Below are positions 7,291-63,362 of a DNA stretch of 64,000 nt, piece by piece; the first letter of the stretch is position 1, and each line of letters begins with the position of its first letter. Under the pieces are notes generated by a model, which saw nothing but the letters and a program-made list of their open reading frames with translations, made no database searches and was not told the origin of the DNA. The stretch covers positions 1-64,000 of the forward strand of contig JAYWIR010000108.1 in the NCBI GenBank assembly GCA_036172245.1, read 5' to 3'. Origin of the DNA: Raillietiella orientalis. Taxonomy: Eukaryota. The translations under genes and the position numbers were made by a program.

Positions 7291-8385
7291 GCTCTTTGTT
7301 CTCCGCGAATGGACCTTTCTTTGCTTTTCTGGCCGCAAGATGTTGTTAGCCCTGTTCCTTTTCCATTACTGCGGAAGGTTTATCTTTTGGGTTTTGCTTC
7401 CGGAGGTTGAGGTGCTCGCAGCTTCTGCCGGCCATCTTCCGCCCTAGGTCTTGCGACCTTCATGTCACGTTTCCCCTGCGCTTCTTTGGCGGCAGGGGAA
7501 ACCGCAGTGGGGCGCTTGCGGCACACAAGCCGAATGTGGCCTTTCTTCCCGCACAGGAGGCACTGTATGTTAAGACACCTCTTACGGAGGTGTCTTACGG
7601 CATCACAGTAGCCGCAATATCATGGTTTTCTTACGTACCAGAGATCCACGCTCTCCAGCGCGACCTTTAGTTTGTGGGGAAGTTCACAATTCTCTTTTGC
7701 GGTGACCCACGCTGCAGCCTGACAACGAAAAATGCTATTGTAGCCGTCGAAAATAATGCATTTGGGCCACAGTGCGTGTACCTTGCCGAACTTTCGGAGT
7801 TCTTCTCCGACCGCAGAGCGAGTCATGCGGCTACTAATGCCGGTCATGTGGACCACCACGGAGAGATCCATTGAAACCGGCAAGATCTTGCGACCGTCAA
7901 CGTTTAGCGGAGCATGGATCAGGCGGTGGGCCAAGGTGATGTCTTTGCACACCATCTCCACCCACTGCTCGCCGCTGAGGACGGAGAGTCCGTCAAGATA
8001 CTTTCCCAGTATGTTCGTTTTTTGCAGTGTGCTGCTAAAGGCGCGTTCAGTCCGGCCTTAAACAAGTTGCCTACCTGGTAGACGAGCGATAACTTGCACT
8101 CGGATGCTTTGTATGCGGCCATCTCCGCCATGGCTTCCGCGCTGGGCGCTGTCACCAAGGCGCTCCATGTCCTCGACGTGGCCAGGGATGACTCCGAGGC
8201 GGATGCCTTTAATGCTGCAGGCTGCAAGGGTGGCCATGCCTTCCTCACGCCTACTTTCATCGCGGTGTCGTCGAGCTTCGTAGCCATCGGAGACCGACGA
8301 TGCACACAGAACAACATACACAAGAAAAAACTCTTTGCTACGACTCTTTTGGAAATGAAGGAAAAACACGTCATTCCCACCTTCC
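7291..8385 (-). mobile_element. Family A element 5' part (5' UTR, ORF1 N-terminus with CCHC knuckles)
   Basis: WSALVTAPSAEAMAEMAAYK, VDLWYV, CGYC..RH....C; TGACGTG motif at 8373-8367. Confidence 0.8.
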
Positions 8386-8584
8386 TTGAGGGGGCTGGCT
8401 GCAAAGAGGCAGCCAGCTCCTTCGCCGCTCGCGCGAAGGCTTTGTCATCGATGGTGAGGTCGATGACGAACGCCGCAGCCGGCTCCCTCCCCTCGCTGTT
8501 GACAGAGTCAACAGAGGGGTTGTCGTTCGTAGCGGCAAGTTCTTTCTTGCAGCAGTCAGGAATACGCTCCACGATAACGCTGCA
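8386..8584 (-). mobile_element. Family D-type ORF1 fragment
   Basis: CSVIVERIPD...DDKAFARAAKELAASLQP, matching the ORF1 at 49394-50572. Confidence 0.75.
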
Positions 8585-16890: not shown

Positions 16891-17031
16891 CTCGAGGACT
16901 GGTACGATCTGAAAAAATCGTTCCGGGAGTTCTGCTGCCGGTTTCCCTTGCACCTGCTTCTCCGCGGCTTCAAACAGGGTGTCGCGAACAGCAGATCCTT
17001 TCTGCAGGCGCGTACCTTCTCCAAATCTCCT
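16891..17031 (+). mobile_element. Continuation of family E ORF2 after the family B insertion
   Basis: LEDWYDLKKSFREFC.RFPLH..RGFKQGVANSRSFLQAR is homologous to QDWD...GFGEGVRNERAYLQAR in the other copies. Confidence 0.75.
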
Positions 17032-17350
17032 CTGTGGAGAGAGGACGTGCTTCCCTTGCTCTCCGCCTGCGTGGCAAGGCGAGTAGTTTTTTTCTTGAGT
17101 GGCTTGTGCGTGCACATCGTCGATGTCCAATGCCAGCGTTCCCAGAGGACATCTAGATGGAAGTAGGCCTGAGGGAGGCTTGTTCGTCCCCACAGCCTAC
17201 TGGATCAGGGACATCCACCCCGAAATTGTCCCCAGCGACGCCGAGGTCATGGAGCGCCATGGTGGCCGCGCCTAGAGTGGAAGCCATGGCCGAGATGGAA
17301 GCCTACAAGAAAGCGGGGTATAAACCCTTGCTAGTCTACAAGGTAGGCAA
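17032..17350 (+). mobile_element. Family A 5' fragment (5' UTR and ORF1 start)
   Basis: Closely matches 24249 onward (CTGTGGAGAG.GGACGTGC); WSAMVAAP..EAMAEMEAYKK. Confidence 0.85.
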
Positions 17351-17905
17351 GGTAGGCTTTTGGAGACGGCCGGACCAGGCTTCTGCTGCGCAGAAGTGCC
17401 CCAACGGTACGCCGAGGTACTTGAAGCATTTGCCCGTGGGGATCCCCTAGCGGATCCAGTCCGACCGTCCAGCCCACGCAGAACCAACGAAGACTATGCA
17501 CGACTTCGCCCAGTTCACCTCCAGGCCCGTCCCGCGGCGCAGCAACTCGAAGAAGTCCTCAAGTGCACTCGCCGGGGTGGACCCGGGAAGCAGCAGCAGA
17601 AGATCGTCTGCATAGGCCGACACGGCAGGCGTGCCGGCACACGAGCTCGGCAGTGTTGCCAGAGTTACCCTGTATGCCCTCAGCACCAACTCGAAGTAGA
17701 TACTGAAGAGCAAGGGGATCAGGCTGTCACCCTGCCGGATACCGCGGCGGACTGCCACGCCGTACACGTGCCGGCCGCTGAAACCAATATTAATTGACAC
17801 GATGCGCCAGCAGGAGCGCAGGTAGGACTGGAGCACAGCCGGGAAACCCATGCGTTCCAGGAGCTCCAAAAGGAGTTCCTGGTCGACGCAGCCGAATGCT
17901 CTGCG
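17351..17905 (-). mobile_element. Family C reverse transcriptase fragment (downstream half of a host split at KAFD)
   Basis: AFGCVDQELL...GIRQGDSL...YADD...KYLG. Confidence 0.88.
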
Positions 17906-17999
17906 TACTCCAGGGTGGACGTGTTTTCTCGGTGCTCCTCGTGCCAAGAAGTCTCTTCCGGTGCAAGCGTCGTGTGGTTCGGTGGTCGATCAGGCAGCG

Positions 18000-19600: not shown

Positions 19601-19614
19601 TCTTCCCAGCAGTA

Positions 19615-23409: not shown

Positions 23410-24248
23410 TCGAATGCTTTGCGCAAATCGACCGCGACTGCAAAGGCTTCCGTCGAGTCCCTCCCACGCTCTATCCGATGTTCCTGGTTAGAGGGGAGCG
23501 CGAGGCACTTTTGACCATCCTGAGCAACGCTTTGTCGCAACTGCCACCATGAGCTGGCGAGGAGCAGGTTGGCCTCCATGGTTCGTCCGGGAACAGCGTA
23601 GGTCTGCTCGGGACTCACCACGAAAGCGGCCACCCGCCCCAAACGCTAGGCCCACAACTTGGCATACAACTTAGCGTCCGTATTCACTACTGTGATGGGA
23701 CGGCAGCTGCCAATGTTGCGTAGGTCTCCTGACTTCGGCAGGAGACGTACTTTTGCTGATCGAAACGAGGCGGGAACTTCGCCGTGTTCGCGGATCAGCG
23801 TACCTAGCTTGAGCACCAGGGGGGCCAGCTCTGTCGCGAAGTGTTTGTAAAATTCCGCGGACAGGCAGTCCTCCCCTGGTGCCTTCCTGTTCTTCAGCCT
23901 GTTGATGGCGGAGACGACCTCCACCAGCGTGAACGGTTGTGCCAACCTGCAACGATCCTCCTCCTTGAGCGCGGGGAGACCATCCGCCAGCAGGCGCTGC
24001 GCGAAATGGCGCTGCTGTGTTAGTGGCGCGTACAAGGACGACTAGAACACTCGCACGATGCGGCTTACCTGAGCTGGGCTGCAGCGCTCTTAGTCCTGAT
24101 GGTCCAGCAAGCAGACCAAGCCCGACTGCAAGGCCTGTCTCTCAGCCTCAGCCTCGAATTCTGAAAGGCGACGAACGTCGGGACGCATGCAATAACGGCG
24201 GGCCTTAAAATATGCCCGCTCGTTCCTGACTCCTTCGCCGAATCCCCG
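23410..24248 (-). mobile_element. Family C ORF2 linker and RT N-terminal fragment
   Basis: RGFGEGVRNERAY...APGED.L..RPIT...AVAVDLRKAF. Confidence 0.88.
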
Positions 24249-24347
24249 CTGTGGAGAGCGGACGTGCTTTTCCTGCGCTCCGCCTGCGTGGCATAGCGAG
24301 TGTTTTTTCTTATTAAGTGATTTGTGCGTGCACATCGTCGGTGTCCG

Positions 24348-29817: not shown

Positions 29818-30025
29818 TCCCTTCCCTGCCCCCCAACCTCATATGTTTGTTTGCTTTTTTGTTTTTATTTTTGTTTTTCCCCATCCCGTTTCGCTGCCGG
29901 GGAGTGCCACGCCGGGCTGCGTCCCGGCGTCCCGGTAGGTCCCGTGCATAAGGCCGTGAGCGGGGCCTGGTACCGCAATTGTAGAGTTTTTATGAATAAA
30001 CGCCCCGGGCGTACCCGGGTGGCAA

Positions 30026-36600: not shown

Positions 36601-39329
36601 CGAATCCGGGGGGCCGGCGGTGAGGGGGAAACTCCTCGTAGAACTCGCGGACCGAGGCATTGAAGAGGTCCAAATCTTTCAGACTGCGGAGGGTGACGCC
36701 TCTCAGGAATTCGCAAACGTGTTCCTTCGCACCTGAGAGGCGCGTCCAGTCCCCAGGCAACCGCCACGCCCTGGACGGGGGTCCTTTGTCGCGCGGGCAA
36801 ACCTTGGTGATGATCCTGGAATGGTCCGACAGCGTCGACGCAACTTTTCCCCGTTTGCCGACCCGCGAGCACAAGTCGACATCCAGGAGCAAGTGGTCGA
36901 TACTGCGGTCCATTCCCTCCGCGTCTGCCAACAAGTTGCGCGTGCGCATGGCAGCGCACAACTCGTTAGCCGTGCGTTCTTGGGCTTCGGGCTCACCTGA
37001 CAGCAGACGGAGATTGAAGTCTCCAGCTATCAGGTGTGCCTTCCGCACATTCGTGTCGGCAAGCCAATCGCGCTTCAGGGTTTCCAGCAGCCTGGTACAG
37101 TCGCTGTATCTCCCTTTCTCACTCGGAGCGTACACGTTCGTGACGATCAATTCGATCGAGTCGGACCAGCTGAGAATCAGCTGACCGACCCGACCGTCGT
37201 CATCAAAGCGTACGCCCTTCACGGCAGCGTCGATGGCCGGCTTTCCGAAGAACGCGACCTCTCAGGTGTTGCGGGCGCCGCATCGCCAATACAGTCGACC
37301 CCCCGCGATCACCTCGATCTCCTGGACGTCTGCCGAAGAGATCACGTGGATCTCCTGCAGCAGGGCCAGGTCGAGCTCACGCAGGGTGTCGGCCGTATCT
37401 CGTCTGTTGCCGTCGTCGCGCAGCCCGTTGACGTTCCTACTGGCCACGCGGATTCGACAGCGACAGGCGATCCCAGGTGTTATTCCTGGGAAATCGGCTG
37501 TGCGGCGTCCGCCACCTGTTGGGGAGGGACGCTAGGTGCAGAAGGAGGGACAGGTGCCTCTAGCACCTGGTGACCCTCTTCCATCGGTGACGGCGCGTCG
37601 GGCGGTTCACCCTCAGGTGGGGTCGCGCCTACCTGCTGGCCCTCCTCCATAGGGGTGGGCTCCTCAGGGTCCGCGACGGCAGGCGGGATTTCGCCCCCCT
37701 GCTCACCCTAATCCATGGGGGTGTCCTGCTCGACGGCTTCCTCGCGTGGGAGCTCCCCCTCCGGGATTCCCACGCTGCCGGCGACTTCCTGCTTCTCCTC
37801 CTCGCTCGTGGAGGGGAGGCGCTTCCTCGGCTTTTGGAACTTGCGTCCCGTCTTCCGGGGGGGTGCCTCCGAGGAGGAGGATGCACTTCCGGCCCCCAGG
37901 TCGCACTCACCTGCGGGGGCCTTCTTCGGCGGAGCCGGCGATCGTACGGCCTTGCGTGAGGGGTTCTCACGCTCAGCCAGCGTGGCTGCGAGCTCTTCCG
38001 CCGCCTTCGCGAAGGCGGCGTCCTCGCCGGCGGCGAGCGCGTCGCGCGTCTCACCCTCTGTGCAAACAGAGGGTTCGCCGTCGCAAACCTCGGGCGCGGC
38101 GGAAACGGCGAGGGGAGGCTTGTCGCCCCGGGTGGCAGCCTCGGGAACGCTGATGCGCTCCAGTGCTACCGAGCACTCGCGGAGAGTTTTAGATCGCGGA
38201 CCAGGTTTTTTCGCCTTCGCGCCCAACTTTTTCTCCGCCTTCTCTTGTGAACCCTTTTTGGGTTCTTTTCTGGCCTTTACCAGCGTCCATCCTTCTTCCT
38301 CGCCCGCGTCTTTCGCGGTTTTTTCCGCCGCCGCCTGGGTTGGAGGAGGAGGAGAAGGCTGCTGGGGCCGGCCATTCTCGCGATGAGGTCTTTCGACCTT
38401 ATTCATCTTTTTCGCCTGTGCCTTTTTGGCAGCAGGTGGCACCGGGGTGGAACGTTTAGGGCACACACGACGGACGTGTCCCTTTTCCCCGCACAAGTGG
38501 CACTCGATATTCGGGCACCGCCTGCGCACATGCCTTAATGCATCGCAATAGCCACAATAGCGGGGTTTCCCCACATACCAGAGGTCGACGGGCTCCTTCC
38601 CGACCTCCAGTTTGTGGGGTAACCCAGCACCCTCGTTCACAGTGACACGCGCTGCTGCCTCGCCACCAATGAGGCTGTTATAGCCGTCAAAAATGGTTGG
38701 CTTTGGCCACAGCGCGTGCACATCTCTGTATTTCCTCAATTCCGCGTTCACCGCAGAGCGCGTCATGCGGTTCGTGATATCCGTTAGATGGAACACTACG
38801 GAGCGGTCCATGCTAGCGGGTAGGATCTTTCGGCCAGCCACATTCAGCGGAATGTTGATGGGGCGCTGCGCTAGGGCTACGTCTTTGCAAACGACCTCCA
38901 CGCGTTGCCTTCCGCTGAGTACGGCGAGGCCGTCAAGATCCTCCTCACGCACGGGAAATTGCTGTAGTGCCTTGCTCAAGGCAAGCGCGCTGCGACCGTC
39001 GAACAGATTTCCTACCTTATACACCAGGGATGGTTTTTATCCGGAGGCCCTGTAGGCCGCTTGCTCAGTCAAACTTTCCGCTCTCGGCGCGGCGAACCTG
39101 GCGCTCCAGCTCCTCGTCTTAGGCGACGAGGACGATTCCGGGGCGGATGCCCCTGATTCTGTAGGTCGTAAGGGGGGCTAGGCTCCCTCACGCCTACCTC
39201 CATCGTAATGTCCTCTGGCAGCGATGCCATCGGACACGAACGATGTGAAAAAGCACACACAGAACCAAAAAAAACCGCTTTCCGCTGCTCGTTCGCGGAG
39301 CGCCGGAAAAACACGTCCGCTCTCGATGA
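33669..39329 (-). mobile_element. Full-length family A element inserted antisense at the 'GFG' site of family B ORF2
   Basis: GGACGTG at 39318; ORF1 ~39230-37480; ORF2 ~37480-33885 with all motifs; hairpin 33675-33690. The host resumes with EGPSNERCYLQARRY; the TSD is degenerate. Confidence 0.9.
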
Positions 39330-42249
39330 GAGGTAGTTAAGGAGGGGCCAAGTAACGAAAGGTGCTATCTTCAGGCCCGACGTTACGCGAGAACCCCCAA
39401 AATGCGCAGGTTAGCAGAGTATCGAGCGGGAGCCGAGAGGCAAGCCTGGCAATCCGGGTCGGCCAGCTTGCTGGAAGACCAGGGCCGGGAGCACTCGGTT
39501 CCCGCTCAGAAACGCGGGATAGTGAGGAAATTTTACTCCTCCCTGTACGCCAGGGCGCCTCCGGAGCGAGACGTCTTAGGACTTCTGCTTCCGGAAGGTG
39601 CTCCAGCGATCGGGGAGGAGAATAAAAGAAGCCTCGACGGGCCTTTCACGATGGACGAGATCCTCTCGGCCATCGGAAAGCTCAAGAGGCGGAAGGCTCC
39701 AGGCGAGGACGGCCTATTCGTGGAGTTTTACCAAACTTTCGCGGCTGAGCTTACCCCCCTGGTACAGGAACTCACCTTGCTGATACGCGAAACAGGTGAC
39801 GCTCCCGCCTCGTTTCGTTCGGCAAAGGTGCGGCTCCTCCCTAAGGGAGGAGATCTGAGGAGCATGAACAACTGGCGTCCCATCACAATAGTGAATGCGG
39901 ACGCCAAGTTGGTAGCCAAGATGTGGGCAGAGCGTCTGGGACGGGTTGCCAACATCTTCATCAGCCCGGAACAGACATATGCTGTTCCCGGTCGAAGCAT
40001 GGAGGCGAACCTGTTCCACGCTTCCACATGGTTAGAACTCCAACAAGAACGGAGCATAAAAAGCAACCGGAATTCCGGTGCGTCCGTCGGTAGGGGACGG
40101 GATGGTCGGGAGGGGAGAGGAGCCCTCGCGGTCGCAGTCGATTTGCATAAAGCATTCGAATGCGTCGACCAGAATCTCCTTTTGGAGCTTCTAGAACGCT
40201 TGGGCTTCCCGGTTTTCTTGCGGGCCTACCTGCGCTCCAGCTGGCGCGACGCGTTTATTAATGTTTTTTTTAGTGGATCCACCGTGTAAGCCGTAATGGT
40301 GCGACGCGGCATACGGCAGGGAGACAGCCTCAGCCCCTTGCTCTTCAGCGCCTATTTCGAATTGGTGCTAAGAACGTACAGGGAGACTCTGGCGCACCTG
40401 CCGTGCGATTGTCCCGGGAGGCCTGCGGTTTCGGGGTACGCGGGCGACCTTCTGCTGCTGCTGCCTATGTCCACCCCGGGTGCGGCGGTCGAAAAGTTCT
40501 TCGACCTGCTGAGTCGGGGAACAGGACTGACGGTGAACAGGGCGAAGTCGTCCGTAATGCCAGTCGGAGCGGCGTGGGCAGGGCAGCAGCACTGGGCCCG
40601 TTTGGGGATCCCCACGGTGAGGTACTTCAAGTACCTTAGTGTGCCGTTGGTGGACTACTCCCCTGCGGAAGCGTGGTCCGGCTGCCTTCAGAAGGCTCAG
40701 GCGGCGATCGGCCCGTTCCAAGACGGCAGGTTCTACCTGCTGGAAGGGGCCGCGGCGTGGAACGCGTTTGCGGCTCTTCTCCTTCGCCCATTGTTTTTTG
40801 TTTGCCCCCCCTCAGCAAAGTCAAAGAAGAGGACGAAGGACCTCCTGAGGATCGCCCTTTGGGGCAGAGGGAGGCCCCGAGTCCGTCTTTCGGACTTGTG
40901 CGCTCCTCGTCGGGATGGTGGTCTGGGCCTTCTGACGTTGGAGCGGCTGGAGCTACAGCTCCAGTTTTGAGTAGTTGCCTTTATGGCAGCAAATTGGTGC
41001 ACCCCTTGGTGCCTCCCTGCACGTCTCCTCGTCGAACGGGCCGCCGGCAATGCGGGACTTTCGTATTACTCTGCACTCCGAAGCTTCATCTGCCACTGCG
41101 GACTTCAACTTCTGAGGGCGGCCAAGCTCGTGAAGAACAACTCGGCGCGGTTCCTCGTACGCTCCGCGAGCGGTCCTGCCTGGTTGCAGGAAACCGTCCG
41201 CACGTGGGCGATGATTCAAGAGCAGAGCCCGCAACACGAGCGAATAGCTCTGTTCGGGCCGCATGCCCGCCGCACGCTCCGAGAAATCATCGAGAATCCC
41301 CGAAGGAGAGCGTGGGCACAAAGAACCTCCCTTGCTGCGTTGCTGCCTACCCTACGCGAACATCTGGGCAGCGACGTCGCGGCACAATGGGAGGTTACTG
41401 TCAAGATCGCCTGCAGGGCAAAGATGATCGGGGTTTGGAGAACGGTTCAGCTCACGAACGCTGCGACCCCGAGGACCACTTCAAATAAACTGTAGCGCTG
41501 GGGAGAGCTACTGCTTGTTCCAGAGGAACATCTCGAGTGGCCTCCGGTGCTCATGGACTCGCGCACCCTCCCCATGAAGTGGCAACAGTCGGCACTGATG
41601 GTGTTGCATTGGGGGCTTCCTTGCAACGCCCGCCGACACCACTGGACGCGGGGGGGTGTCAACCCTAATTGTGTCAGGTGCGGGGAGAGGGAATACCTAC
41701 CCCACCTGTTAGTGGATTGTGTTGCCCTCCGTCCCTTGTGGGAATGCTTTGCCGCAGCCCTGGGGATCCCCGGAGGCAACCCCAGAGACCCTTTGCGCCC
41801 CCTCTTCGTCCGTGACGCCCTGCCTCCAGCGGTCTCGCTTGCAGCCCTGTGCTGCCTACGCGGGATCTTCGTGGCATGCAGCAAAGCGACGGGAGGATTT
41901 AGCGACAGGGATGCCAACGTGTATGCCGCCCGTTTCCTCAGGATGGCGACGCTATGGCTCGATCTGGAACCACACAAGCAGAAACAGCTTGCCGGCATGC
42001 TCCAGAGGATGACGGACCCTCCCAGCAGACTGTGATATCTTCCCTCTCCCTTTCTGATTTTTGTTTATTATTTGTTTTCTTTTTGTTTCGTTCCCCCTCC
42101 CCTCTGCTGCCGAGGTCGACCGCGCCGGTCTGCGCACCGGTAGCCCGGCAAGCTATATCTTTCCAGGGCGTGGCTGGATTACTGGTCCAGTCACAGATTG
42201 TATAGGTTTATTCGTGAGAATAAACGTCCCGGCGCACCCGGGTTTCAAC
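39330..42249 (+). mobile_element. Family B element, 3' part (RT, zinc finger, 3' UTR)
   Basis: PGEDGL, WRPIT, DLHKAF, GIRQGD, CVRC..HLLVDC; AATAAA 42219-42224 followed by CCCGG-CGCAC-CCGGG. Confidence 0.88.
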
Positions 42250-44892
42250 GGAGACTTCGGAGCGTGACGCCTATCAGGTATTCGCGAAGGTGTTCCTTCG
42301 CACCTGAGATTCGCTTCCAGTCCCCCGGCAGACGCCAATCCCTGGATGGAGGTCCTTTGTCACGAGGCCGCATCTCGAAAGTTAACCGGGAATGGTCCGA
42401 CAACGTTGACGCAACCCTCCCCCGTTTCCCGACTCGTTAACACAGGTCAGCGTCGAGGAAAACGTGATCGATGCTGCGGACTATTTCCCTCTCACCCGCG
42501 AAGAAGTTGCGCGCACGCATGGCGGCGCACAACTCGTTCATCGCGTTCACTTGTGTTTCCGGCTCACCTCTTAGCAGGCGGAGATTGAAATCTCCCGCTA
42601 TCAGGTGAGCCTTTCGCACGTTCGTGTCCGCCAGCCAGTCGCGCTTTAGGGTTTCCAGCAGCCTGGTACGGTCGCTGTATCTCTATTTACCGCCGGGGGC
42701 GTACACATTCGTGACGATCAGTTCGATCGAGTCGGACCAGCTGAGAATCAGCTGACCGACCCGACCGTCGTCATCGAAGCGCACTCCCTTCACGGCAGCT
42801 TCGATGGCCGGCTTCACGAAGAACGCGACCCCGCAGGTGTTGCGGATGATGCACCGCCAATACAACCGACCCCCCGCGATCGTCTCGATCTCCTGGGCGT
42901 CTGCCGCGGTGATCACGTGGATCTCCTGCAGCAGGGCCAGGTCGAGCTCACGCAGGTTATCGGCCGTATCTCGCTTGTTACCGTCGTCGCGCAGCCCGTT
43001 GACGTTCCAACAGGCGGCGCGAATCCGACGGCGACTGGCGATCCCAGGTGTTACTCCTGGAAAGATGGCGATGCGGCGTCCGCCACCTGTTGGGGCGTGA
43101 CGCTAGGTGGAGGAGGAGGGTCAGGCGCTGCGTGCACCTGGTCCCCCTCCTCCATGGGTAACGGCGCGTCGAGGGGGTCACCCTTAGGTGGGGTCGCGCC
43201 TACCTGTTGGCCCTCCTCCATGGGGGCGGGCTGTTCAGGCTCCTCGACTGCAGGGAGGACTTCGCCCCCCTGCTCACCCTCCTCCATGGGGGTTGCCGGC
43301 TCGATGGCTTCCTAGCGTGGGAGTTCCCCCTCCGGGATTCCTACGCTACCGCTAGCTTCCTGCTTCTCCTCCTCGCTGATGGAGGGAAGGCGCCTCCTGG
43401 GTTTCTGGGACTTGCGTCACGACTTCCTGGGAGGTGCCTCCGAGGAGGAGGATGCACTTCCGGACCCCAGGTCCGACTCACCTGTGGGGGCCTTTTTCGC
43501 GGGAGCCGGCCTTCGCACGGCCTTGCGTGAGGGGTTCACACGCTCCGCCAGCGTGGCTGCGAGCTCCTCCGCCGCCTTTGCGAACGCGGCGTCCTCGGTG
43601 TCGAACGGCGGGTCGCGCGGCTCACCCTCTGTTTGCACAGAGGGTTCGCCGTCGCGAACTTCGGGCGCGGCGGAAACGGCGAGGGGATGCTCGTCGCCCC
43701 GGGTGGCATCTTCCGGAACGACGATACGTTCCAGTGCCACCGTGCACTCGCGTACGGTTTTCGAACGCGGCCCGGGTTTTTTTGCCTTACCGGCCGGCTT
43801 CTCTTTCTTCTCCTTTAAAGGAGCTTTTTTCTCTTCTCTGGCTGCTACAAGTTGCCAGCTCTCTTCACCTTCCGCCTCTTGGGAAGGTTTATCCTCTGTC
43901 TTTTCTTTTGGAGGTTGAGGATCTGGCAGCTTCAGCCGGCCAGCGTCCTCCTTAGGTCATGTGACCTTTAGTGCGCGTTTCCCCTGCGCCTTTTTCGCGG
44001 CAGGAGGAACCGGGGTGGGGGTTTTAAGCACACACGTCGAACGTGGCCCTTCTCCTCGCACATGTGGCATTGGATGTAAGGACACCTCTTGCGAAGGTGA
44101 CCTACGGTATCGCAGTAGCCGCAATACCGGGGCTTTCCCACGTACCAGAGGCCAACGCTCTCCTGCGCGACCTCCAGCTTGTGGGGAAGCCCACAGTCCT
44201 TACTCACGGTTACCCGCGCTGCAGCCCGGCCTCCGAAATGGCTATTGAAGCTTCCAAAGATTGTTGGCTTAGGCCATAGCGCGTGCACTTCGCCGAACTT
44301 CTGTAGCACTTGTGCTACCGCAGAGCGAGTCATACGGCTCGTTATTCCAGTGAGATGGACCACCACGGAGCGGTCCATCGTCACCGGCAAGATCTTGCGG
44401 CCGTCGACGTTCAACGGGTTGGTGATAAGAGTCTAAGCCAAGGTGATGTCCTTGCACACCACCTCGACTCGCTGACCTCCGCTGAGAACGGACAAACCGT
44501 CAAGATCTTGTTCTCTTACTCCGGCGTTTTGCAGCGCTTTCGAAAACGCGCGTGCCGTTTTTCCGTCGAATAAGGGGCCTACCTGGTACACCAAGCTGGG
44601 CATGTACCCAGCTGCCCGGTGGGCCGCCATCTCGGCCACGGTATCCGCGCTCGGCGCGGCCACCATGGCGCTCCAGCTCCTCGCCTTGGGCGACGAGGAC
44701 GATTCCGGGGCGGACGCCCCTGATTCTGTAGGCTGTGAAGGTGGGCAGGCCTCCCCCACATCTACCTCTATCGTGATGTCCTCATGCATCTATGCCATCG
44801 GACACGAACGATGTTCCACACCAAAGAACACAAGAAAAAAACTGCTTCCTGTCGACTCACTCGGGAGCGAAGGAAACACACGTCCACTCGCC
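42250..44892 (-). mobile_element. Family A element, 5' half (ORF1 and endonuclease), cut at 'VTLRSL'
   Basis: GGACGTG at 44885; CGYCDTVGHLRKRC; TAACA junction at ~43051; endonuclease motifs. Confidence 0.88.
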
Positions 44893-44905
44893 AAGGGATT
44901 CGGCG

Positions 44906-45798
44906 ATGCAACCACGATACGCTGAAACGTTTATTAAAAAACATTTCAACGGGCAATACAGAACGTGGAACAAGGCCCCACTGACGGCCACGGAATGCCG
45001 GAACTGCCGGGACACCGGGACGCAGCCCGGTGTGGCTCTTCTCCGCAGTGGAGGGGGATGGGGGAAAAAACAAAAATAAACTAAAAGAGAAAAACATACC
45101 ACAAAAAAAAAAAAGTTTGGAGGGCCGGGAAGAGATCACAGAAAACTGCTGGGAGCGCCCATCCTTTGCAGGATGCCTTCTAGTTCCATTTTCTGCTTTC
45201 TTAGGTGGGGCCATCGGGTAGCTCTCTGCAGAAAGCGAGAAGCATACTCGATGACGTCCCTCACGATGCAGTCTTCATCTTCGTTATCACTCCAGGCCGC
45301 CACGATACCACGAATTCAGCAAAGTGCTGCCAGGGCTGCGGCTGGACTGAGGGCGTCCCGCACGAAGACAAGACTGAAGATACATTCAACATTGCCACCA
45401 TCCGTTATCCGCAGGGCCGTTTTCAGACGATCCCAAAGAATCTGGACGGCATGGCATTCAACTAAGAGGTATGGGAGCGTCTCCCGCTCCCCACACCTGG
45501 CACACGCAGGATTTACTCTTCACCGCGTCCAGTGGAAGCGGCGCGCGTTGCAGGGTAGACCCCAATGCATCCACAGAAGCGCCGATTCTTGCCACTTCAG
45601 GGGGAGAATCCTGGATCCAATTAGAACCGGGGGCCACTTCAGGTCATCCAATCGAATGCCGAGCAGCTCGTTCCATCTTCTTAATCCACGAGGCTGGAGA
45701 CTAAGGGTCGTTGCATCTGTCAACTCTCCCATGGTCCAGCCGCTCATCATGTTCTCTCTGCCTGCGATACGGCAGCAGGCTTGCCACCTTGGCTTCCG
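44906..45798 (-). mobile_element. A-like element 3' end (ORF2 C-terminus and 3' UTR)
   Basis: RKPRWQ...KWQESALL..WGLPCNARR; AATAAA and a decayed terminal hairpin. Confidence 0.82.
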
Positions 45799-48700: not shown

Positions 48701-50830
48701 CATCAGATCCTTGCCGCTCGGTGCGTACACGTTCGTCACAATCACATCGATCGAGTCGGACCACCTGAGAGTCAGCTGGCCGACACGACCGTGATCGTCG
48801 AACCGCACGCCCCGAGCCGCTGCCTCGACGGCTGGCCGAAGCAGGTAGGCGACACCGCAACTTTTCGCTCTCCCACACCTGTACCACAGCCGCCCTCCGG
48901 AGATCCGTTCGATCTCTTGCACTTGTTCTGCAGAGATCACGTGGATCTCCTGCAGCAGCGCAAGGTCGCTGGACTCCAGAAGGGCGGATATGTCTTGTCT
49001 CCTGCCGGCGTCTGTCATGCCGTTCACGTTCCAAACGGCGATGCGCAGACGACGGCGGGAGGAGATTCCCGGCATTACTGCTGGGAAGATTAAGGTGTGG
49101 GGGAGCCCGCCTCTTGCGAGCGGGGCGGGATGTCCATTGGGGTATCGGCCTTCTCAGGCACCTGAGGCACCTTTTCGACCTCCACCCCCTCCATCCCCTC
49201 CGTGTCCGTGCGTGGGAGTCTCTCGGGCGACGAATCCCGAGAGTTTTCCACGCTCATGGCACCCTCGCTTGCGGAAGTTATCTCTTCCCCTTCGACGGGG
49301 GAGACGAGCTTCCTTGGCTTTGTTGACTTACGTCCAGCCTTCTTGCGCGGTGCCGTGGAAACAAAGTCTGCGTTTCCGACCTCCACCTCGGAATCAGTAG
49401 TGGGGGACTCCTGAGGGGAGGCCGGACGCCTTAGGCCTTCTTGCTAGCCTTGAGGATTCTGGCTGCAACGAAGCTGCCAGCTCCTCCGCGGCTCGCGCGA
49501 CGGCTACGTCATCGATGGTGGTGTCGATGACGGACACCGCCGCAGTCTCGCTCCGCTCGCTATTGACAGTGTCATCAAACAAGTGTTCGTCGGTAGCGGC
49601 GAGTTCTTTTTCGCAGCGGTCGGGAATACGCTCGACGACAACGCTGCATTCGTTAATTTGCTCGCTTGCCTGCTGGTTTTTTTGGCGGTACGCGAGCTTT
49701 TTCTCCATCCTCCTCTCCTTCTTTGATTTTTTGGCCGTAGCCACCTGCCACCCAGGCTCCTGGCTTGTTCCCTCGATTTGTTGGGCGTTGTTCGCGGGGG
49801 TCTCGGGTGCGGCCTGGGCCTTGAGCGCGGGTGGTACAGCCTTCGCGGCAGCTTTCGCCGCCAGCCTTTTCTGCAGAAGCCGATCACGTTTTTGAAGGTT
49901 TCTCTTAAAAACCACCCGCACTGCTGCTTTAGGGCACACCTCCATCGTTTGTCCCATGGCTCGGCATACTTGGCACTGCACGTTGGGACACCTCTTTTTG
50001 AGGTGGCCCGACGTATTGGAGAAGCCACAGTATTTCGGCTTCCGCACATACCAGAGGTCGGCGGTTTCGCCTTCGACCACCAGTTTGTGGGGAAGAGTGC
50101 AGCCCTCCCGGAGGGTCACGCGTGCAGCAGGGAGGCCGTGTTGCAGCCCCGTGTAGTCCTTGAAAGAACTAACTTTTGTCCACTGCGCGTGGACCGTTCC
50201 GAACTGTTTCGAAGCGGCGCGAACCTGTTTTTTGCGCATTCGCGCGGTTACGCCTAACAGGTGGACCATCATGCTGCGTTCCGCCGTAGTGGGGAGGTGC
50301 CTGCGCGTCCCCATCACAACGGGGGTTTTTAGCAGTCGTTGGGCCAGCTCTGCATGTTTGCAGATGACCTCAACGTACTGACCCCCGCTGCATTTGGTCA
50401 TAGCGCTAAGCTCCTCCTCTATCACATCGATAGCGCGCATGCCCTTCGAAAAGGCGCGCGCGCTCTCTAAAGAATATAAATTGCCTACCTTGTAAAACAA
50501 TGAGGGTTTGTACCCCTCCTCTACATAGGCCGACAATTCCGCCGCGGCTGCAGGCGATGGCGCCGACACCACGGCGCTCCACGCCCGCGCTGCAGCGGGG
50601 ACCGATTCTGTGGGTTGGATGCCCCCAGCTCCATCGCCTCTGCAGGCGACGGTGCCGCCGCCCCCTGGCTCTCCATCGCCTCTGGGGGCGGCGCTGCTGC
50701 TGCCCCGTGGCCATCCCTGATGGTCGCGTCAGGCATCGCTGCCTGATCGACCACCGAACCACACGACGCCAGCACTATTGGAGACTTCTTGGCACGAGGA
50801 AGACCGAGAAAACACGTCCGCTCTAGAGCG
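45799..50830 (-). mobile_element. Near full-length family D element (3' end replaced by an A-like end)
   Basis: GGACGTG at 50819; ORF1 ~50736-49090; ORF2 from 49075 (526 aa still open) with endonuclease and RT motifs. Confidence 0.9.
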
Positions 50831-50844
50831 CACAAAGCATTCGA
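50831..50844. repeat. Isolated target-site copy CACAAAGCATTCGA between two tandem family D ends
   Basis: This 14-mer equals the RT H-K-A-F-D coding sequence and the family D TSD; it is flanked by a 5' end and a 3' end. Confidence 0.85.
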
Positions 50845-52952
50845 TTTTCACCCGGATTTCTCCGGGTAGTTTATTAAAAAAATAAAGTTTGTAAACAAAT
50901 TATCAATGGCTGTGGCAATGCTCCAGCCAGAAGCTAGGGACCACGGTGCCTGCCAATTCACCGGTTTCTAGACCGGTACGTTCCACCAAGGCAGCAGCGG
51001 AATGGGGAAAAACACAAAAAAAAAAACTCAACAAAAAAAAAAAAAAGGGTTGGAGGGAACGGGAAGGGATCACTGTTGCTGCTGGGGCCGCTGCATTCCT
51101 TTCAGGATGCTGGCAAGCTCTGGTTTGTTGTGAACATCCAGGTGGGGCCATCGCGACGCCCTCCTCAGGAATTCGGAGGAGCACTGGATGGCTTCCTGAT
51201 CGCTAGGTCGTCCCGTCGCCGTGCTCCAGGCGGCGACGATCCCACGAAGGCAGCACAAGGCTGCTATCGAGGACGCTGGCCGCAGGGCGTCGGCAACGAT
51301 GAAGGCTTTTAGTGCGTCCCTGGGGTTGCTGCAAGGGATACCGATGGCCGCGGCAAAGCGGAACGAAAGGGTCCGAAGGGCAACACAATCCACTAGGAGG
51401 TGGGGGAGATACTCCCGTTCCCCGCACCTTACACAATTGGGATCAACCGCTCCCCAGGTCCAGTGGTGTCGACGGGCGTTGCAGGGGAGTCCCCAGTGCT
51501 GCAACAGGAATACCAACTCTTGCCATTTTAGGGGGAGGATGGAAGTGTTCATCACAATCGGGAGCCACTTCAGATGTTCAATCGGAACATCCAGCAGCGC
51601 TCTCCAGCGCAGAAGTCCATTAGGAGGCGTACTCGGGGTCAAGCATCAGTTAGCTGGCCCGTCTTCCACTCTCTCTGCTTCTTGTCCTTGCCAGAGATAT
51701 TTATTGTAACCTCTCACTTCGCCGCAACATCGCTGTCCTGATGTTCCACTAAGGAGTCGAGCGCAGAAGCGAGGGGGGTTCTTCCTGACCACGCTCTCTT
51801 CTTAGGATACACCAGGAGCGTGCAACATCTGTAACACCCAAACAGGAACCTTCGTACCTGATGGGAGGGTTGCATGCCGAACTGTGTCCACGTACGAACG
51901 GTTTTCTGCAACCAGGCACTACCGTTCGCGGGGAGACATTTGATCCATCCTTGACTTTTCCTTGCCAGCGCAGCCACCCTCCGTAGCTGAAGCCCACATT
52001 GGTTGATGCGGCTTCGATGGAGTGCAAGAAACGACGTAAGTCCCGTCTTACCGGTAGCTTGCTGAAGAGGGAGACGTGCAGGGACGCACCAACAGGTGCA
52101 CCACAACTCTGGAACGAGTGCCGACAATCGGAACAGGAGCTGAAGCTCCAGCCGCTCCAGCGTCAGGAGGACCAGACCACCATCCCGACGAGGAGCGCAC
52201 AAGTCCTTTAAGCCAACTCGGGCCCTCTTGTTGCTTCAAAAGGCTATACGGAGGAGGTCCTTTGTCCGCTTTTTAATTCTCTCTATGAGGGAGCAAACAA
52301 AAAGCAGGGGGCGGAGGAGAGGAGAGGCGAAAGTGTTCCAAACCACGGCCCGTTCAGGCAGGAAAAAGCAGCCGACTCGGAACGGGCCGATCGCCGTCTC
52401 TGCTTTTTGGAGGCAACCGGACCACGCTTCCGCAGGGGAGTAGTCCCCCAACGGCAAACCAAGGTACTTGAAGTACCTCACCATGGGGATCCCCAAACGG
52501 ACCCAGTCCTGCTGCCCTGCCCACGTCGCTCCAACTGGCAACACTGACGACTTCGCCCTGTTAACCTGTAATCCGGCCCCACGCATAAGCAGGTCGAACA
52601 AATCTCCGATTGCCTTCGCCGGGGTGGACATAGGTAAGAGGAGCGGAAGATCGTCGGCATACGCCTCAACGGCTGGCGTACCGAGGCACGAGCTCGGCAA
52701 GGGGGCCAAACTCACCCTGTACGCTCTCAGCACCACCTCAGCGTAGGTGCTAAAAAACAGGGGGCTAAGGCTGTCGCCCTACCTTATGCCCCGCCGCACC
52801 GGCACGCCATACAACTTTTGTCCACTGAAAGTAATTGAGATTATCGCGTTCCGCCAGCAAGAGCGCAGGTAGGTAATCAAGGAGAGTAGGAAGCCCATGC
52901 GATCCAGGAGCTCCAAGAGGAGTTCCTGGTCAACACAGTCGAATGCCTTGTT
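50845..52952 (-). mobile_element. Chimeric element: A-type RT core joined to a D-type C-terminus and 3' UTR, cut at KAFD
   Basis: YADD region resembles the 27589 ORF; the C-terminus resembles 6558-7290 and 1565-2010; hairpin ACCCGGA-GAAA-TCCGGGT at 50850-50867. Confidence 0.8.
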
Positions 52953-53546
52953 CGCTCTAGGGTGGACGTGTTTTCTCGGTGCTCCTTGTGCCAGGAACTC
53001 TCCCCCAGTGCAAGCGTCGTGTGGTTCGGTGGTCGATCAGGCAGCGATGCCTGACGCGACCATCAGGGATGGCCACGGGGCAGCAGCAGCGCCGCCCCCA
53101 GAGGCGATGGAGAGCCAGGGGGCGGCGGCACCGTCGCCTGCAGAGGCGATGGAGCTGGGGGCATCCAACCCACAGAATCGGTCCCCGCTGCAGCGCGGTC
53201 GTGGAGCGCCGTTGTGTCGGCGCCATCGCCTGCAGTCGCGGCGGAATTGTCGGCCTATGTAGAGGAGGGTACAACCCCTCATTGTTCTACAAGGTAGGCA
53301 ATTTATAATCTTTAGAGAGCGCGCGCGCCTTCTCGAAGGGCATGCGCGCTCTCGATGTGAAAGAGGAGGAGCCCAGCGCTATGACCATCCGCAGCGGGGG
53401 TCAGTACTTTGAGGTCATCTGCAAACATGCAGAGCTGGCCCAACGACTGCTTAAAACCCCCGTAGTGATAAGGATGCGCAGGCTCCTCCGCACTACGGCG
53501 GACCGCAGCATGGTGGTCCACCTGTTAGGCGTGACCGCGCGAATGC
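52953..53546 (+). mobile_element. Family D 5' fragment inserted antisense at the KAFD site
   Basis: Follows TCGAATGCCTTGTT; GGACGTG at 52964; ORF1 begins MPDAT. Confidence 0.87.
52964..52971 (+). promoter_or_regulatory. DPE-like internal promoter motif GGACGTGT (representative copy)
   Basis: The same motif occurs near the 5' end of essentially every element and matches the DPE consensus RGWYV. Function is inferred. Confidence 0.55.
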
Positions 53547-56483: not shown

Positions 56484-56575
56484 TAAAGTGAGAGGACGTG
56501 TTTTTCGGTGCTTCCGAAAACCGTCTTTTTTGCGAGTGTCGGTGTTTTTCTAGGTGCGGTCGTTCCTGGGCAGAA

Positions 56576-58245: not shown

Positions 58246-58253
58246 ATACACCA

Positions 58254-61810: not shown

Positions 61811-62034
61811 AGGACCTATCCGCCCGCACGGTGATCCCCTCCCTGCCCTCCCATTCCCGAAACATTTGCTCCCTCCCATACTTCAACTATTTGTTTGTTT
61901 TTTGTTTTGTTCTTTCCCAACCCCCGCGGATCGGATGGACCTCTACGGCATAGCGCCCGTAAATACCAAGCTGTTTTGTAGTGGTGGACCTTTGGGTTCA
62001 CCACGCGACAATCCATTGTGATTTTATTCTTTTG

Positions 62035-62064
62035 AATAAATGCCCCGGCATATCCGGGTGAAAA
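62035..62064 (+). terminator. Element 3' terminus: AATAAA and GC-rich hairpin (representative copy)
   Basis: AATAAA-TGC-CCCGG-CATAT-CCGGG-TGAAAA; recurs at element 3' ends throughout the window. Confidence 0.7.
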
Positions 62065-63001
62065 CGCGGACGACCGGTTTCTGCTTCGGTCCTGTTCCTT
62101 CGGCGTGTCTGCTTTCCTCGCGCCTGTAGGAACTGACCTTTTTCTGTTGGGGCACATCCGCCTGATGTGCCCCTTCTCCCCACAGCCCAAGCACACGATG
62201 TTGGGGCATTTCTTCTTCAGGTGCCCCGACACCTGGCAAAAGCCGCAGTATACGGGTTTCCCCACATACCACAGGTCGATCTCCTCCTCCCCGACCTGCA
62301 GTCTGTGGGGTAGCCCACCCTCGGCACGTACCGTCACGCGCGCAGCGGCGTAACCACTAAATGCCCTGGTGTAACCCAGGACATTGGGTTTTGCCCACAA
62401 CGCGTGGACCGTCCCGAACTTCTCCAAACTTTCCCGAACGGCGGTCTTGGCCATTCTCATCGTAATACCGGTGAGGTGGACAACGATGGAGTTGTCCGCC
62501 GTGAACGGGAAGATTCTTCTCCCGTTCACGGTCACCGGCAGGCGGAGCAGCTGCTGAGCCATCCCTGCAGACTTGCAGTTCAGCTCAACCAGCTGCCCGC
62601 ACTCCTAACCGAAAGTCCGAGGACTTCGTACTCCGGGACGTTCAATTTCTTGAACTCGGCCGCGAACGACCGCAAAACCGCGGGGGAGTACAGGCCACCT
62701 GCCTTGTATAACAAGGCCAAGTTATACCCGTCGGCCATGTAGGCCCGCTGTTCCTCTGCGGGTGGCGGCGCAGGCGCCGCCACCACCGCGCTCCAAGCCC
62801 TCGCCGGGGCGGGGGACGATTCCGTGGGGGAGATGGCCCCCACATCCATGGGCTGAAGGGACAAGGCTCGCTCGCCCCCCTCCGCCGTCTTTGCGGCGTC
62901 CTCGGGCATCTCTGCCCAGGAACAACCGCTCACAGCTTACAGCCCCGAAAACACTCGCGAGAAAAACGCGGAGCACCACAAAAGCACGTCCAATCTCTCA
63001 G
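62065..63001 (-). mobile_element. Family C element 5' part (5' UTR and ORF1 N-terminus), upstream half of the host split at 56483
   Basis: GGACGTG at 62991; inverted match to ~56560-57400; an internal deletion joins DRS to KQKP through CCGAAG microhomology. Confidence 0.88.
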
Positions 63002-63009
63002 GCAGCGGG

Positions 63010-63190
63010 TTGTTCACACCCGGATGTGCCGGGGCATTTATTTCATAGAAATAAAATTACAGAAAAATGTCGCGTGGCGAACCCGAAGGTTCACCACTCC
63101 AAAACAGCTTGCTGCTTACCGGCTCCGTGCCGGAGAGGTCCTTCCGATGCGCGGGGATGGGAAATAAAGAAAAACAAAAAGAAACAAGTC
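63010..63190 (-). mobile_element. Family C isolated 3' UTR fragment
   Basis: Inverted match to ~61895-62064, including AATAAA and the hairpin. Confidence 0.8.
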
Positions 63191-63362
63191 TTCACGCGTT
63201 GTGGGCAAAACCCAAACAAAAAGGAAGCGGTCTTCTCGCCTTCCTCACCTGAAACTGCGGCGTTCACAGGCATTTCTGCTTGTCAACGGCCGCGAAACAC
63301 ACACGAAATACCAGGCAAGAAAAACTCCCTATCCACGGAGCGCACAACAATCGCGACCGCCG

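Follow-up and report, generated by a model that had tools for sequence, protein, structure and literature searches.

The window, by which we mean the entire 64-kb stretch of DNA analysed, holds several lineages of non-LTR retrotransposons nested within each other. One copy, X2, is inserted on the plus strand into an X-like element that occupies the minus strand at approximately 50832-52952. The following features make up its 5' end and the host DNA ahead of it:

52935..52940, plus strand: Inr-like hexamer ACAGTC in the host flank of X2, in which A52937 is placed 27 nt ahead of the motif
52939..52952, plus strand: host target segment TCGAATGCCTTGTT, matching the 14-nt target-site duplication of the X family
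52953..52963, plus strand: leader CGCTCTAGGGT, the first 11 nt of the copy as set by junction comparison
52964..52971, plus strand: DPE-class motif GGACGTGT, an exact match to R-G-W-C-G-T-K-Y (consensus from a section of PMC1636488)
52972..52985, plus strand: remainder of the conserved 5' module, a T-run and then GCTCC at 52981-52985
53047..53049, plus strand: likely ORF1 start codon, predicted from a conserved ATG context and giving a 5' UTR of about 95 nt

Results and discussion

The elements and their 5' ends

By their domain content the carriers of the motif are L1/Tx1-like non-LTR retrotransposons, in which ORF1 encodes a zinc knuckle and ORF2 an APE endonuclease, a reverse transcriptase (RT) and a C-terminal zinc-binding region. 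Pfam matches in the elements include Exo_endo_phos (down to 2.8e-17), RVT_1 (down to 6.1e-23) and zf-CCHC (24.7 bits), as well as a zf-RVT match of 25.0 bits that is under the 27.5 cut-off. The nearest Atlas clusters combine RVT_1 with zf-RVT and are mostly chordate; for the RT there is one relative at 67%, the others, at 31% or less, being L1-like proteins of plants, vertebrates, fungi and ticks. The 3' ends of the elements carry a conserved hairpin, and four of 13 recognised 5' ends sit 5-14 nt behind the 3' end of another element. The CpG o/e is 0.99. The 5' ends other than that of X2 are:

X1, 17888..17924, plus strand: GCAGCC (A17890), 14-nt duplication copy, 11-nt leader, motif at 17917-17924
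X3 (tandem), 50812..50875, minus strand: 3' end of the upstream element (AATAAA, hairpin, GGGTGAAAA), 14-nt target piece, 11-nt leader, motif at 50819-50812
A1, 24236..24267, plus strand: 13-nt duplication copy CGCCGAATCCCCG, 11-nt leader, motif at 24260-24267; TCCTTC at -27, no Inr
A2, 39311..39343, minus strand: motif at 39318-39311, 11-nt leader, then 14 nt upstream (TCCTTAACTACCTC, 39343-39330) that match the local target copy at 5/14
A3 (tandem behind the 3' end of another element), 44878..44935, minus strand: motif at 44885-44878
A4, 17032..17050, plus strand: 11-nt leader, motif at 17043-17050, in a look-alike site sense to the host ORF2
C1, 56472..56501, plus strand: 12-nt duplication copy, 10-nt leader, motif at 56494-56501
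C2 (tandem behind a 3' end), 62984..63042, minus strand: 9-nt leader, motif at 62991-62984
D, 8586..8593, plus strand: motif after one non-host base, from slight 5' truncation or a different junction
E, 63352..63358, minus strand: decayed GGTCGCG starting an internally deleted element of about 340 nt
F, 16877..16912, minus strand: degenerate GGACGGG (16883-16877), with host-flank TCAGAT whose A (16910) is 27 nt upstream
G, 8367..8402, minus strand: TGACGTG (8373-8367), 10-nt leader, with host-flank GCAGCC whose A (8400) is 27 nt upstream

Conservation of a 5'-terminal module

Exact matches to GGACGTGY number 11 in the window, against 5.25 expected (sd 1.97), a count reached by one of 100 shuffles; 10 of the 11 lie at 5' ends of the mutually nested elements. 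The remaining match, at 38472, falls within an ORF1 of the opposite strand and was set aside as a probable chance hit. From the side of the elements, the exact 8-mer is present at 10 of the 13 recognised 5' ends, with a degenerate copy or remnant at the other three. Between seven family representatives the pairwise identity of the motif is complete (147/147), and elsewhere it is lower: 0.47 for the leader, 0.64 over the 16 columns that follow the motif and 0.50 over what remains of the UTR. On these comparisons GGACGTGY is under strong constraint and forms the unchanging core of a conserved module, about 35 nt long, at the 5' terminus, in which a leader with a GAGAG-like end is followed by R-G-W-C-G-T-K-Y, a T-run and GCTCC. 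This module lies inside a 5' UTR of about 95-100 nt, is kept at all 13 5' ends and is common to at least seven lineages of L1/Tx1-like, site-specific non-LTR retrotransposons nested in the window.

GGACGTGY fits all eight positions of A/G-G-A/T-C-G-T-G/T-C/T, a consensus reported for Drosophila LINEs, and only 0.024% of 8-mers fit R-G-W-C-G-T-K-Y. Against the DPE consensus RGWYV(T) and the extended LINE form RGWCGTKY (taken from sections of PMC1636488 and PMC1538597), the match is exact at 10 of the 13 5' ends and has one or two mismatches at the other three. To go by its letters, then, GGACGTGY is a DPE-class motif. Parts of PMC1636488 place the LINE consensus at about +29 to +36 in Doc, F, G, I and jockey, and parts of PMC4748587 place CGTG at +25 to +28 in L1Tc, with a spacing that stays constant among jockey, Doc, G, I, F, SART1 and TRAS1.

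The conserved module might instead act in RNA or cDNA and be no promoter at all: bound by element proteins, or folded as a small hairpin, it would control translation or integration (second-strand cleavage or priming), much as the 5' RNA of R2 governs the second half-reaction. That the module is kept as a unit (leader GAGnG, motif, GCTCC) agrees with this, as does an RNAalifold structure in which GAGnG pairs with YGCTC around a 15-nt loop holding GACGTGYTTTT; moreover, in a group of site-specific elements with a conserved 3' hairpin, RNA recognition clearly matters. However, the stem has 5 pairs at -0.61 kcal/mol and gains no real support from covariation, a single pair having a double change, and conservation is strongest in the unpaired 7-mer. 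No Rfam family matched at gathering score in the 64 kb, with no relevant self-cleaving ribozyme at E<=10 in two 5' ends, and an HDV-like nested double-pseudoknot descriptor fitted four of 11 ends with inconsistent solutions, as against 17 of 200 shuffles; on these grounds a 5'-end ribozyme was rejected. The RNA or cDNA signal also leaves unexplained both the DPE consensus match and the signal found 27 nt upstream of the motif (see below), and we consider it very unlikely.

An extended-module scan of metagenome contigs gave six loci. Three of these (L002, L003 and L005; GC about 0.40) belong to a single repeat, their upstream flanks being unrelated. The 5' boundary of the repeat, (ATC)ATTCAC, holds TCATTC, and GGACGTG starts 26-27 nt past the A of that hexamer, so that in this other LINE-like repeat the module has the normal spacing from the boundary. 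In L003 there is also an MTE-like 8/10 match at the canonical place. Kinship of this repeat with the window elements is unproven, since the search pattern was built from the window and the coding body of the repeat is absent from the contigs. The other loci (L001 and L004/L006) look like chance: tblastn found no LINE protein within 3 kb of them, and one is on a 2.57-Mb contig.

Distance of the motif from the element boundary

By setting junctions against uninterrupted paralogous 'empty' sites, we counted the bases not derived from the host that come ahead of the motif, here called the leader. It measures 11 nt at six of the exact matches (17917, 52964, 50819(-), 24260, 17043 and 39318(-)) and 10 nt at one (56494); 62991(-) has 9 nt and 44885(-) has 9-10 nt, the exception being 8586 with 1 nt only. 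Among the degenerate motifs it is 7-12 nt before GGACGGG at 16883(-) and 10 nt before TGACGTG at 8373(-), the third being GGTCGCG at 63358(-). Taken together, 7-12 non-host bases precede the motif in 11 of the 13 5' ends and 9-11 in 10 of them; the first element bases are CG, CT, TA or TC, and CGTG falls at +15 to +18 counted from the boundary. An earlier note on this DNA had likened the motif to the DPE of Drosophila LINE promoters, as the eight matching positions bear out, and had given eight coordinates for it, all of them correct. For the motif starts that it put 11-12 nt inside most intact 5' ends, the leader is 11 nt at six and 10 nt at 56494; at 62991(-), where it called the fit approximate, the leader is 9 nt. 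The copy at 44885(-), which also bears the motif, was absent from its list.

The 9-11-nt boundary is unchanged where the duplication is 12-14 nt (X1, A1, C1) and where it is 5 nt or less (F). The 5' and 3' duplication copies agree at 12/14 positions in X1, an element that extends to about 23409 with its second duplication copy from 23410, at 13/13 in A1 and 12/12 in C1, and only at 5/14 in A2. In A1 and C1 the two copies are identical and have common host-specific variants, as in ordinary duplication. The simplest explanation for a boundary that stays constant across duplication lengths would be an RNA beginning at that boundary, which counts against a start farther upstream.

Such a start is assumed by an account that we regard as possible though doubtful, namely an ordinary internal promoter: transcription would begin at the first one to three bases of the element, and GGACGTGY, at about +10 to +12, would bind a start-fixing factor, like the YY1 box near the human L1 5' end, the flank being irrelevant. 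The YY1 box of human LINE-1 lies at +13 to +21, and we know of no involvement of the flank proposed for human L1. The 5' ends of LINEs are normally the 5' ends of their RNAs, the 9-11-nt boundary recurs in 10 of 13 copies despite differing targets, orientations and duplication lengths, and the A1 and C1 duplications are perfect, all of which favour an internal promoter. So does an additional DPE-like copy nearer the start site in Drosophila F elements, described in a section of PMC1636488. Yet an internal promoter would make the match of the 8-mer to the LINE DPE a coincidence, at a spacing at which no DPE is known to function, and in the repeat of L002, L003 and L005 the module is 26-27 nt from the boundary.

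The junction of A2 is counted for an upstream start. Here the non-host sequence ahead of the motif amounts to 25 nt, or up to 29 nt if ambiguous CCCC is included, a length that fits an RNA begun about 27 nt upstream and that an internal promoter does not explain. This extension is one case, and filler bases are possible at LINE 5' junctions. For the 14 non-host bases of A2 there were four approximate matches in the window against 2.7 in shuffles, and for the 13-nt spacer of C2 36 against 30, in neither case an excess that would point to a source. A4 was ruled out as a carrier of a donor-derived arm, the 14 bases upstream of it continuing the host reading frame.

Flanking sequence 27 nt upstream of the motif

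We scored 12 independent flank contexts for TCAKTY at 5/6 or better with A+1, over the 50 offsets from 6 to 55. At offset 27 an Inr-like hexamer is present in two of the 12 contexts (X and F; background 0.0071, p=0.0032) and CAG in three (X, F and G; p=0.0018), and no other of the 50 offsets reaches either count. Without the X context, where the idea arose, the values are p=0.075 for the Inr and p=0.021 for CAG. An initial scan of 10 copies had given 1/10 at 5/6 or better; the 12-context scan with F and G added is the one relied on. In the X family the target gives an Inr-like [GA]CA[GAT][TC]C exactly 27 nt upstream of the motif, and CA occupies -28/-27 in all 10 RT motif-A (X-target) sites of the window.

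Neither CAG nor an Inr-like hexamer is found at -27 in nine of the 12 contexts (10 by the 5/6 criterion), which comprise the A family, C1, D and the four tandem copies; the hexamers there are TCCTTC in A1, ACCTTC in A4, CCCCTC in A2 and GTACAA in C1. These nine flanks favour an internal promoter. On the other hand, at offsets 9-12, which cover the first bases of the elements themselves, none of the 12 contexts has a TCAKTY match at 5/6 or better, and the excess at exactly -27 is left unexplained by a start at the boundary. The objection that G is an off-target copy and speaks against an upstream start was set aside, the normal target of the G family not being defined here. For the optional MTE (CSARCSSAAC, about +18 to +27) the leaders score 2-5/10 at the canonical offset of 10, within background; the highest score among the window leaders is 7/10 in F, one base off the canonical offset.

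The earlier note had counted back 27 nt from 52964 to A52937 in ACAGTC and from 17917 to A17890 in GCAGCC, and had read ACAGTC as the antisense of Asp-Cys codons of the host. Both counts are right, the codons belonging to the RT motif KAFDCVD, and the weaker fit that it saw for A (TCCTTC) and C (GTACAA) agrees with the lack of an Inr-like hexamer at -27 in A1 and C1. Its split promoter, in which the element supplies the DPE and the target the Initiator, is supported in part: X and F show an Inr-like hexamer at -27, and the A family, C1 and the tandem copies show none there. Since the Inr is present for X and F but not for A or C1, the promoter would be 'split' with a consensus Inr as no general requirement. 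The further ideas that only correctly targeted copies would get a complete promoter, and that this would select for specificity, are conjectural.

A possible start site in the target DNA

The reading that we tentatively favour, while rating it somewhat short of probable, is that GGACGTGY, provided that the TFIID of this organism reads a DPE, serves RNA polymerase II as a downstream core-promoter element of the LINE type, with transcription starting in the flanking DNA and the 5' arm copied from the target being absorbed by annealing. To our knowledge, motifs of this class lie about 25-36 nt downstream of the start site in every studied case, and with only 9-11 nt of element upstream of the motif the start site would therefore be in the flank. 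In X, A1 and C1 this would put it 2-6 nt past the target-site duplication, and in F and G 15-17 nt inside the flank of the host; the predicted transcripts would begin with about 15-17 nt of target sequence. The target would contribute a recognisable Inr in the X family, where CA is invariant, and in the F context, though not in the A family or C1. When the element inserts at this conserved target again, the end of the cDNA would match the site and might be absorbed by annealing to it, which would account for the uniform junctions. As a precedent, a section of PMC3774820 describes R2 RNAs in which up to 36 nt of 28S sequence are retained upstream, with uniform 5' junctions and a postulated annealing. 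Promoter function, the start site and the absorption of the 5' arm are what we infer here from the position of the motif and its flanks.

Three intact-motif tandem copies would fit a different source for the upstream promoter part. In these, AATAAA of the upstream element starts 50-56 nt before the motif, i.e. at -23 to -29 from a start 27 nt upstream of it, which falls in the TATA window of -33 to -23 (PMC1538597). An element might have a functional promoter only when directly behind another, with the upstream AATAAA as a TATA-like box and its own downstream DPE, as in HeT-A, and four of the 13 5' ends are so placed. However, the spacing is simply what results when duplication and leader are added to a poly(A) signal that stands about 25 nt short of the 3' end, AATAAA would make a weak TATA box at best, nine of 13 copies are not in tandem, and the tandem copies are without an Inr-like hexamer at -27. 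We regard promotion in tandem as the sole mode as highly improbable.

A start in the target DNA could also be part of one coupled system enforcing specificity, in which a DPE about 11 nt inside the 5' end forces Pol II to start in the target, the resulting 15-17-nt homology arm gives a seamless full-length junction on reinsertion at that conserved site in the ORF of another LINE, off-target copies lose the Inr, the arm or both, and AATAAA in tandem copies stands at TATA distance. As a whole this combination is unlikely.

How site-specific LINEs inserted antisense inside other repeats are transcribed, and how full-length 5' junctions are made, is poorly understood. If the start lies in the target, the downstream half of the promoter would travel with the element and transcription would be tied to correct targeting, while the RNA would automatically gain a homology arm for 5' joining, an outcome similar to one that R2 is thought to reach with a ribozyme. 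If instead the start is the boundary, a classical LINE CGTG/DPE motif would be conserved in an L1/Tx1-like group at a non-canonical position of about +11.

Comparison with known systems

The proposed start in the target DNA has a parallel in R2, a site-specific LINE whose RNA bears target sequence at its 5' end, with uniform 5' junctions and a postulated annealing (sections of PMC3774820). R2 is co-transcribed with rRNA, cut upstream in the 28S gene by an HDV-like ribozyme and provided with a restriction-like endonuclease. The window elements, by contrast, yielded no ribozyme at their 5' ends, are inserted antisense to their hosts and encode an APE-type endonuclease. HeT-A, which 'promotes in tandem', similarly has a start outside the transcribed element, in the preceding sequence (part of PMC1636488), but there the whole promoter is in the 3' end of the upstream element, whereas here a conserved piece is inside the downstream element. 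The YY1 box of human LINE-1, like GGACGTGY, is conserved and lies roughly a dozen bases in from the 5' end, and it sets the start position (part of PMC11602158); it differs in sequence and in the factor that it binds.

The promoter Pr77 of Trypanosoma cruzi L1Tc and of related trypanosomatid retroposons likewise has a downstream CGTG within the first few tens of bases of a LINE; this element is shared by many families that are otherwise diverged and is essential for promoter activity (as described in parts of PMC4748587). In L1Tc, however, the +1 has been mapped to the first base of the element and CGTG occupies +25 to +28, whereas here it is at +15 to +18 from the boundary. In the Drosophila LINEs jockey, Doc, F, G and I the Inr (CATT/TCAKTY) is the first element sequence, the motif lies about +28 to +36 inside and the starts are mapped, whereas here 9-11 nt precede the motif, the element has no Inr inside it and the start is predicted. 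The likeness to these Drosophila elements is in the motif itself: the same 8-nt class, on the sense strand, at the very 5' end and TATA-less (sections of PMC1636488 and PMC4748587).

Nested LINEs and their insertion sites

Non-LTR retrotransposons fill nearly all of the window (GC 55-63%), with long frames encoding Exo_endo_phos, RVT_1, a CCHC knuckle and a sub-threshold zf-RVT domain; the closest Atlas clusters are the RVT_1 and zf-RVT families. Self-BLAST, together with tblastn using the proteins of one element, recovered, from both strands, numerous copies that are 70-94% alike and each broken by the next. Our evidence comprises the 64 kb window, six outside loci and the literature, and junctions were defined against uninterrupted paralogous sites. 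By these comparisons, each of several LINE families is inserted, in antisense, at a conserved coding site of its own in other LINEs, giving a deep nest. Across the window this repeat DNA (59% GC) has a CpG observed/expected ratio of 0.99; CpG is not depleted, and the transposons bear no sign of methylation-driven CpG decay.

Nested regions and X-family elements in the window
17357-24249, nested region
50832-53547, nested region
23754-30962, nested region
53546-63002, nested region
17906-23409 (+), X element
50830 downward (-), X element
52953 onward (+), X element

Copies are cited here by the first base of their 5' motif, GGACGTGY. In other LINEs, X-family elements sit antisense within the RT motif KAFDCVD. 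An uninterrupted site has the sequence GACGCAG^TCGAATGCTTTGTG^CAAATC; insertion duplicates the 14 nt enclosed by the marks, and the copies are 12/14 identical in X1 (17917, +). The A elements are inserted antisense at the PPGFGEG codons, which lie between APE and RT, and have duplicated 13 nt (13/13 identical in A1; 24260, +). C1 (56494, +) interrupts an ORF1 in antisense, its duplication being 12 nt long (12/12). Element F (16883, -) and the element ending at 42248 occupy, again in antisense, a DW site in the APE C-terminus, with a duplication of at most 5 nt.

Some insertions depart from this pattern. A4 (16888-17058, +) is in sense relative to its host ORF2, unlike the usual antisense A insertions; its site, TCTCCAAATCTCCT, matches the usual A target at 10/14 positions by manual count, and the codons next in its host (PDVLRL in relatives) would themselves encode a GGACGTG-like string. 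At 1560-2010 (-), the 3' end of a 5'-truncated X-type element leads into TCGAACGC within an A-like ORF1 read in sense, which looks like an insertion at an X-target look-alike outside any RT gene. Three elements exist only as 5' pieces, 17032-17350 (320 nt), 52953-53547 (595 nt) and 7292-8383 (about 1090 nt), all abruptly abutting RT sequence from a different element. Two of these three joints fall at nearly one RT position, around residues 262-264 in the reference RT, suggesting either another insertion hot spot or repeated rearrangement.

Conserved 3' ends and tandem copies

Elements of different families share a conserved 3' end, in which AATAAA (ATTAAC in one case) precedes a GC hairpin of CCCCGG, 5-7 nt and CCGGG; TG comes next, and the tail is GCAA/TGAA or no more than four A. 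None of these ends has a long poly(A).

Conserved 3' ends in the window
23379-23409 (+)
29995-30025
62035-62064
42220-42248
50875-50845 (-)
63042-63014 (-)
63393-63365 (-)
1595-1560 (-)

Four 5' ends, those of X3 (50819), A3 (44885), C2 (62991) and E (63358), all on the minus strand, immediately follow the 3' end of another element (AATAAA, GC hairpin, GGGTG and short tail), a target piece of at most 14 nt alone separating the neighbours. Such an arrangement would be the expected product of one site used repeatedly. A promoter dependent on the tandem neighbour, whose AATAAA would lie at -23 to -29 of a hypothetical start, seems very unlikely. Between two tandem elements, 63014-63358 (-) is an internally deleted, possibly non-autonomous element of about 340 nt, with a decayed 5' module fused to a 3' UTR that shares 81% identity with its C1 counterpart.

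A downstream promoter element-like motif at element 5' ends

GGACGTGY occurs 11 times in the window (5.25 expected), ten of these at element 5' ends, and degenerate forms (GGACGGG, TGACGTG and GGTCGCG) mark three more; together these ends cover every non-5'-truncated ORF1 N-terminus found by tblastn. The leader of non-host bases preceding the motif is 11 nt long in six copies and 9-10 nt in four, the exceptions being F (7-12 nt), D (1 nt) and E (at most 5 nt). Compared pairwise, seven family representatives agree in 147/147 motif cells and show 47% identity in the leader, 64% in the next 16 columns and 50% in the remaining UTR. The block is genuine, tied to its position and, in active lineages, maintained by selection. 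Comparison of junctions and motifs bore out the coordinates of the earlier note and its counting of 27 nt back from the motifs of X2 (52964, +) and X1. As the X2 element starts at 52953, its 5' UTR would span only about 95 nt. The X3 leader with the first motif base forms a perfect 12-nt palindrome, CGCTCTAGAGCG (50819-50830, -), the X2 counterpart being CGCTCTAGGGTG.

Layout of X2 (+), from the host flank inwards
52935-52940, ACAGTC
52939-52952, target segment
52953-52963, 11-nt leader
52964-52971, GGACGTGT, followed by a T-run
52981-52985, GCTCC
53047, likely ORF1 ATG

The motif fits, at 8/8 positions, A/G-G-A/T-C-G-T-G/T-C/T, the DPE (downstream promoter element) described at about +29 to +36 in Doc, F, G, I and jockey (PMC1636488). 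An unrelated conserved site would be unlikely to fit by chance, because only 0.024% of 8-mers satisfy this consensus. The core CGTG lies at a constant distance in SART1 and TRAS1 too, and at +25 to +28 in Pr77 of L1Tc, whose promoter activity is lost on point mutation there (PMC4748587). That the motif instead acts as a signal at the RNA or cDNA level is improbable: RNAalifold gives the 5' module at most a weak 5-bp stem (GAGnG with YGCTC, -0.61 kcal/mol, one double change), and Rfam yielded no family at gathering score in the window and none of relevance at E<=10 in two 5' ends. An HDV-like ribozyme was rejected, its descriptor fitting the 5' ends inconsistently (4/11 ends versus 17/200 shuffles).

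Possible transcription start in the flank

We tentatively favour, from these sequence patterns, a LINE-type DPE that sets the start in the flank, with the resulting target copy on the RNA absorbed by annealing. In X, A1 and C1 the start would fall 2-6 nt past the duplication; since it would lie in the flank, transcripts would bear a short copy of the target, and at reinsertion into a matching conserved site this arm would be absorbed through annealing. For R2, RNAs that keep as much as 36 nt of 28S sequence are reported to give uniform junctions, with annealing postulated (PMC3774820).

Among 12 independent flank contexts, two have TCAKTY matches of at least 5/6 with A+1 at offset 27, X (ACAGTC) and F (TCAGAT; p=0.0032, background 0.0071 per position), and three, X, F and G (8373, -), have CAG there (p=0.0018); without the X context, from which the idea came, the values are p=0.075 and 0.021. 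Offset 27 alone reaches these counts among offsets 6-55, and no TCAKTY match of at least 5/6 occurs at offsets 9-12 in the 12 contexts. CA occupies the -27 place of the X target in 10/10 RT copies in the window, being constant because it is antisense to the Asp-Cys codons. In A2 (39318, -), the 14 nt before the leader (TCCTTAACTACCTC, 39330-39343, -) match its 3' target copy at 5/14 positions, with no source above chance elsewhere in the window. This single case, with 25-29 non-host bases ahead of the motif, has the length expected if an RNA begun about 27 nt upstream were unable to anneal to a diverged target.

Scanning metagenome contigs with the extended module gave six loci, three of which form a repeat with unrelated flanks.

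Outside repeat copies (contigs about 40% GC)
L002:33-59 (-)
L003:67-93 (-)
L005:4-30 (-)

These copies, found with a pattern drawn from the window and on contigs that stop before any coding body, share the boundary (ATC)ATTCAC, an 8/10 MTE-like match, AGAGCGGACGTGTTTT..GCTCC, GGACGTG 26-27 nt past the boundary A, and an ATG about 30 nt further on.

A start at the element boundary, with the motif acting at about +11, is nearly as likely. It is parsimonious, the boundary is unchanged with long or short duplications, and the A1 and C1 duplications are perfect. YY1 box coordinates in human L1 are comparable to a motif at about +11. That box is reported to dictate the L1 start site (PMC11602158). 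Against a boundary start, the motif sits 9-11 nt from the element start, versus about 25-36 nt for DPE-class motifs in the studied cases, where transcription starts at the element's first base (PMC1636488, PMC4748587).

The earlier note had proposed a split promoter, the element bringing the DPE and the target the Inr. The target does offer a recognisable Inr-like sequence at -27 in the X and F contexts; the proposal is not general, an Inr at -27 being absent in the A contexts (TCCTTC, ACCTTC and CCCCTC), C1 (GTACAA), D (8586, +) and the four tandem copies, an absence that counts against a start in the flank. It is reasonable to suppose, as the earlier note did, that a split promoter might select for targeting specificity.

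Relationship to known systems

Should 5' end mapping place starts in the flank, the finding would become notable. In its proposed mode of action the motif resembles the Inr and DPE promoters of Drosophila LINEs and Pr77 of L1Tc, but differs in that the Inr here is not within the element. A start outside the element has a precedent in HeT-A, and an RNA carrying target sequence has one in R2.
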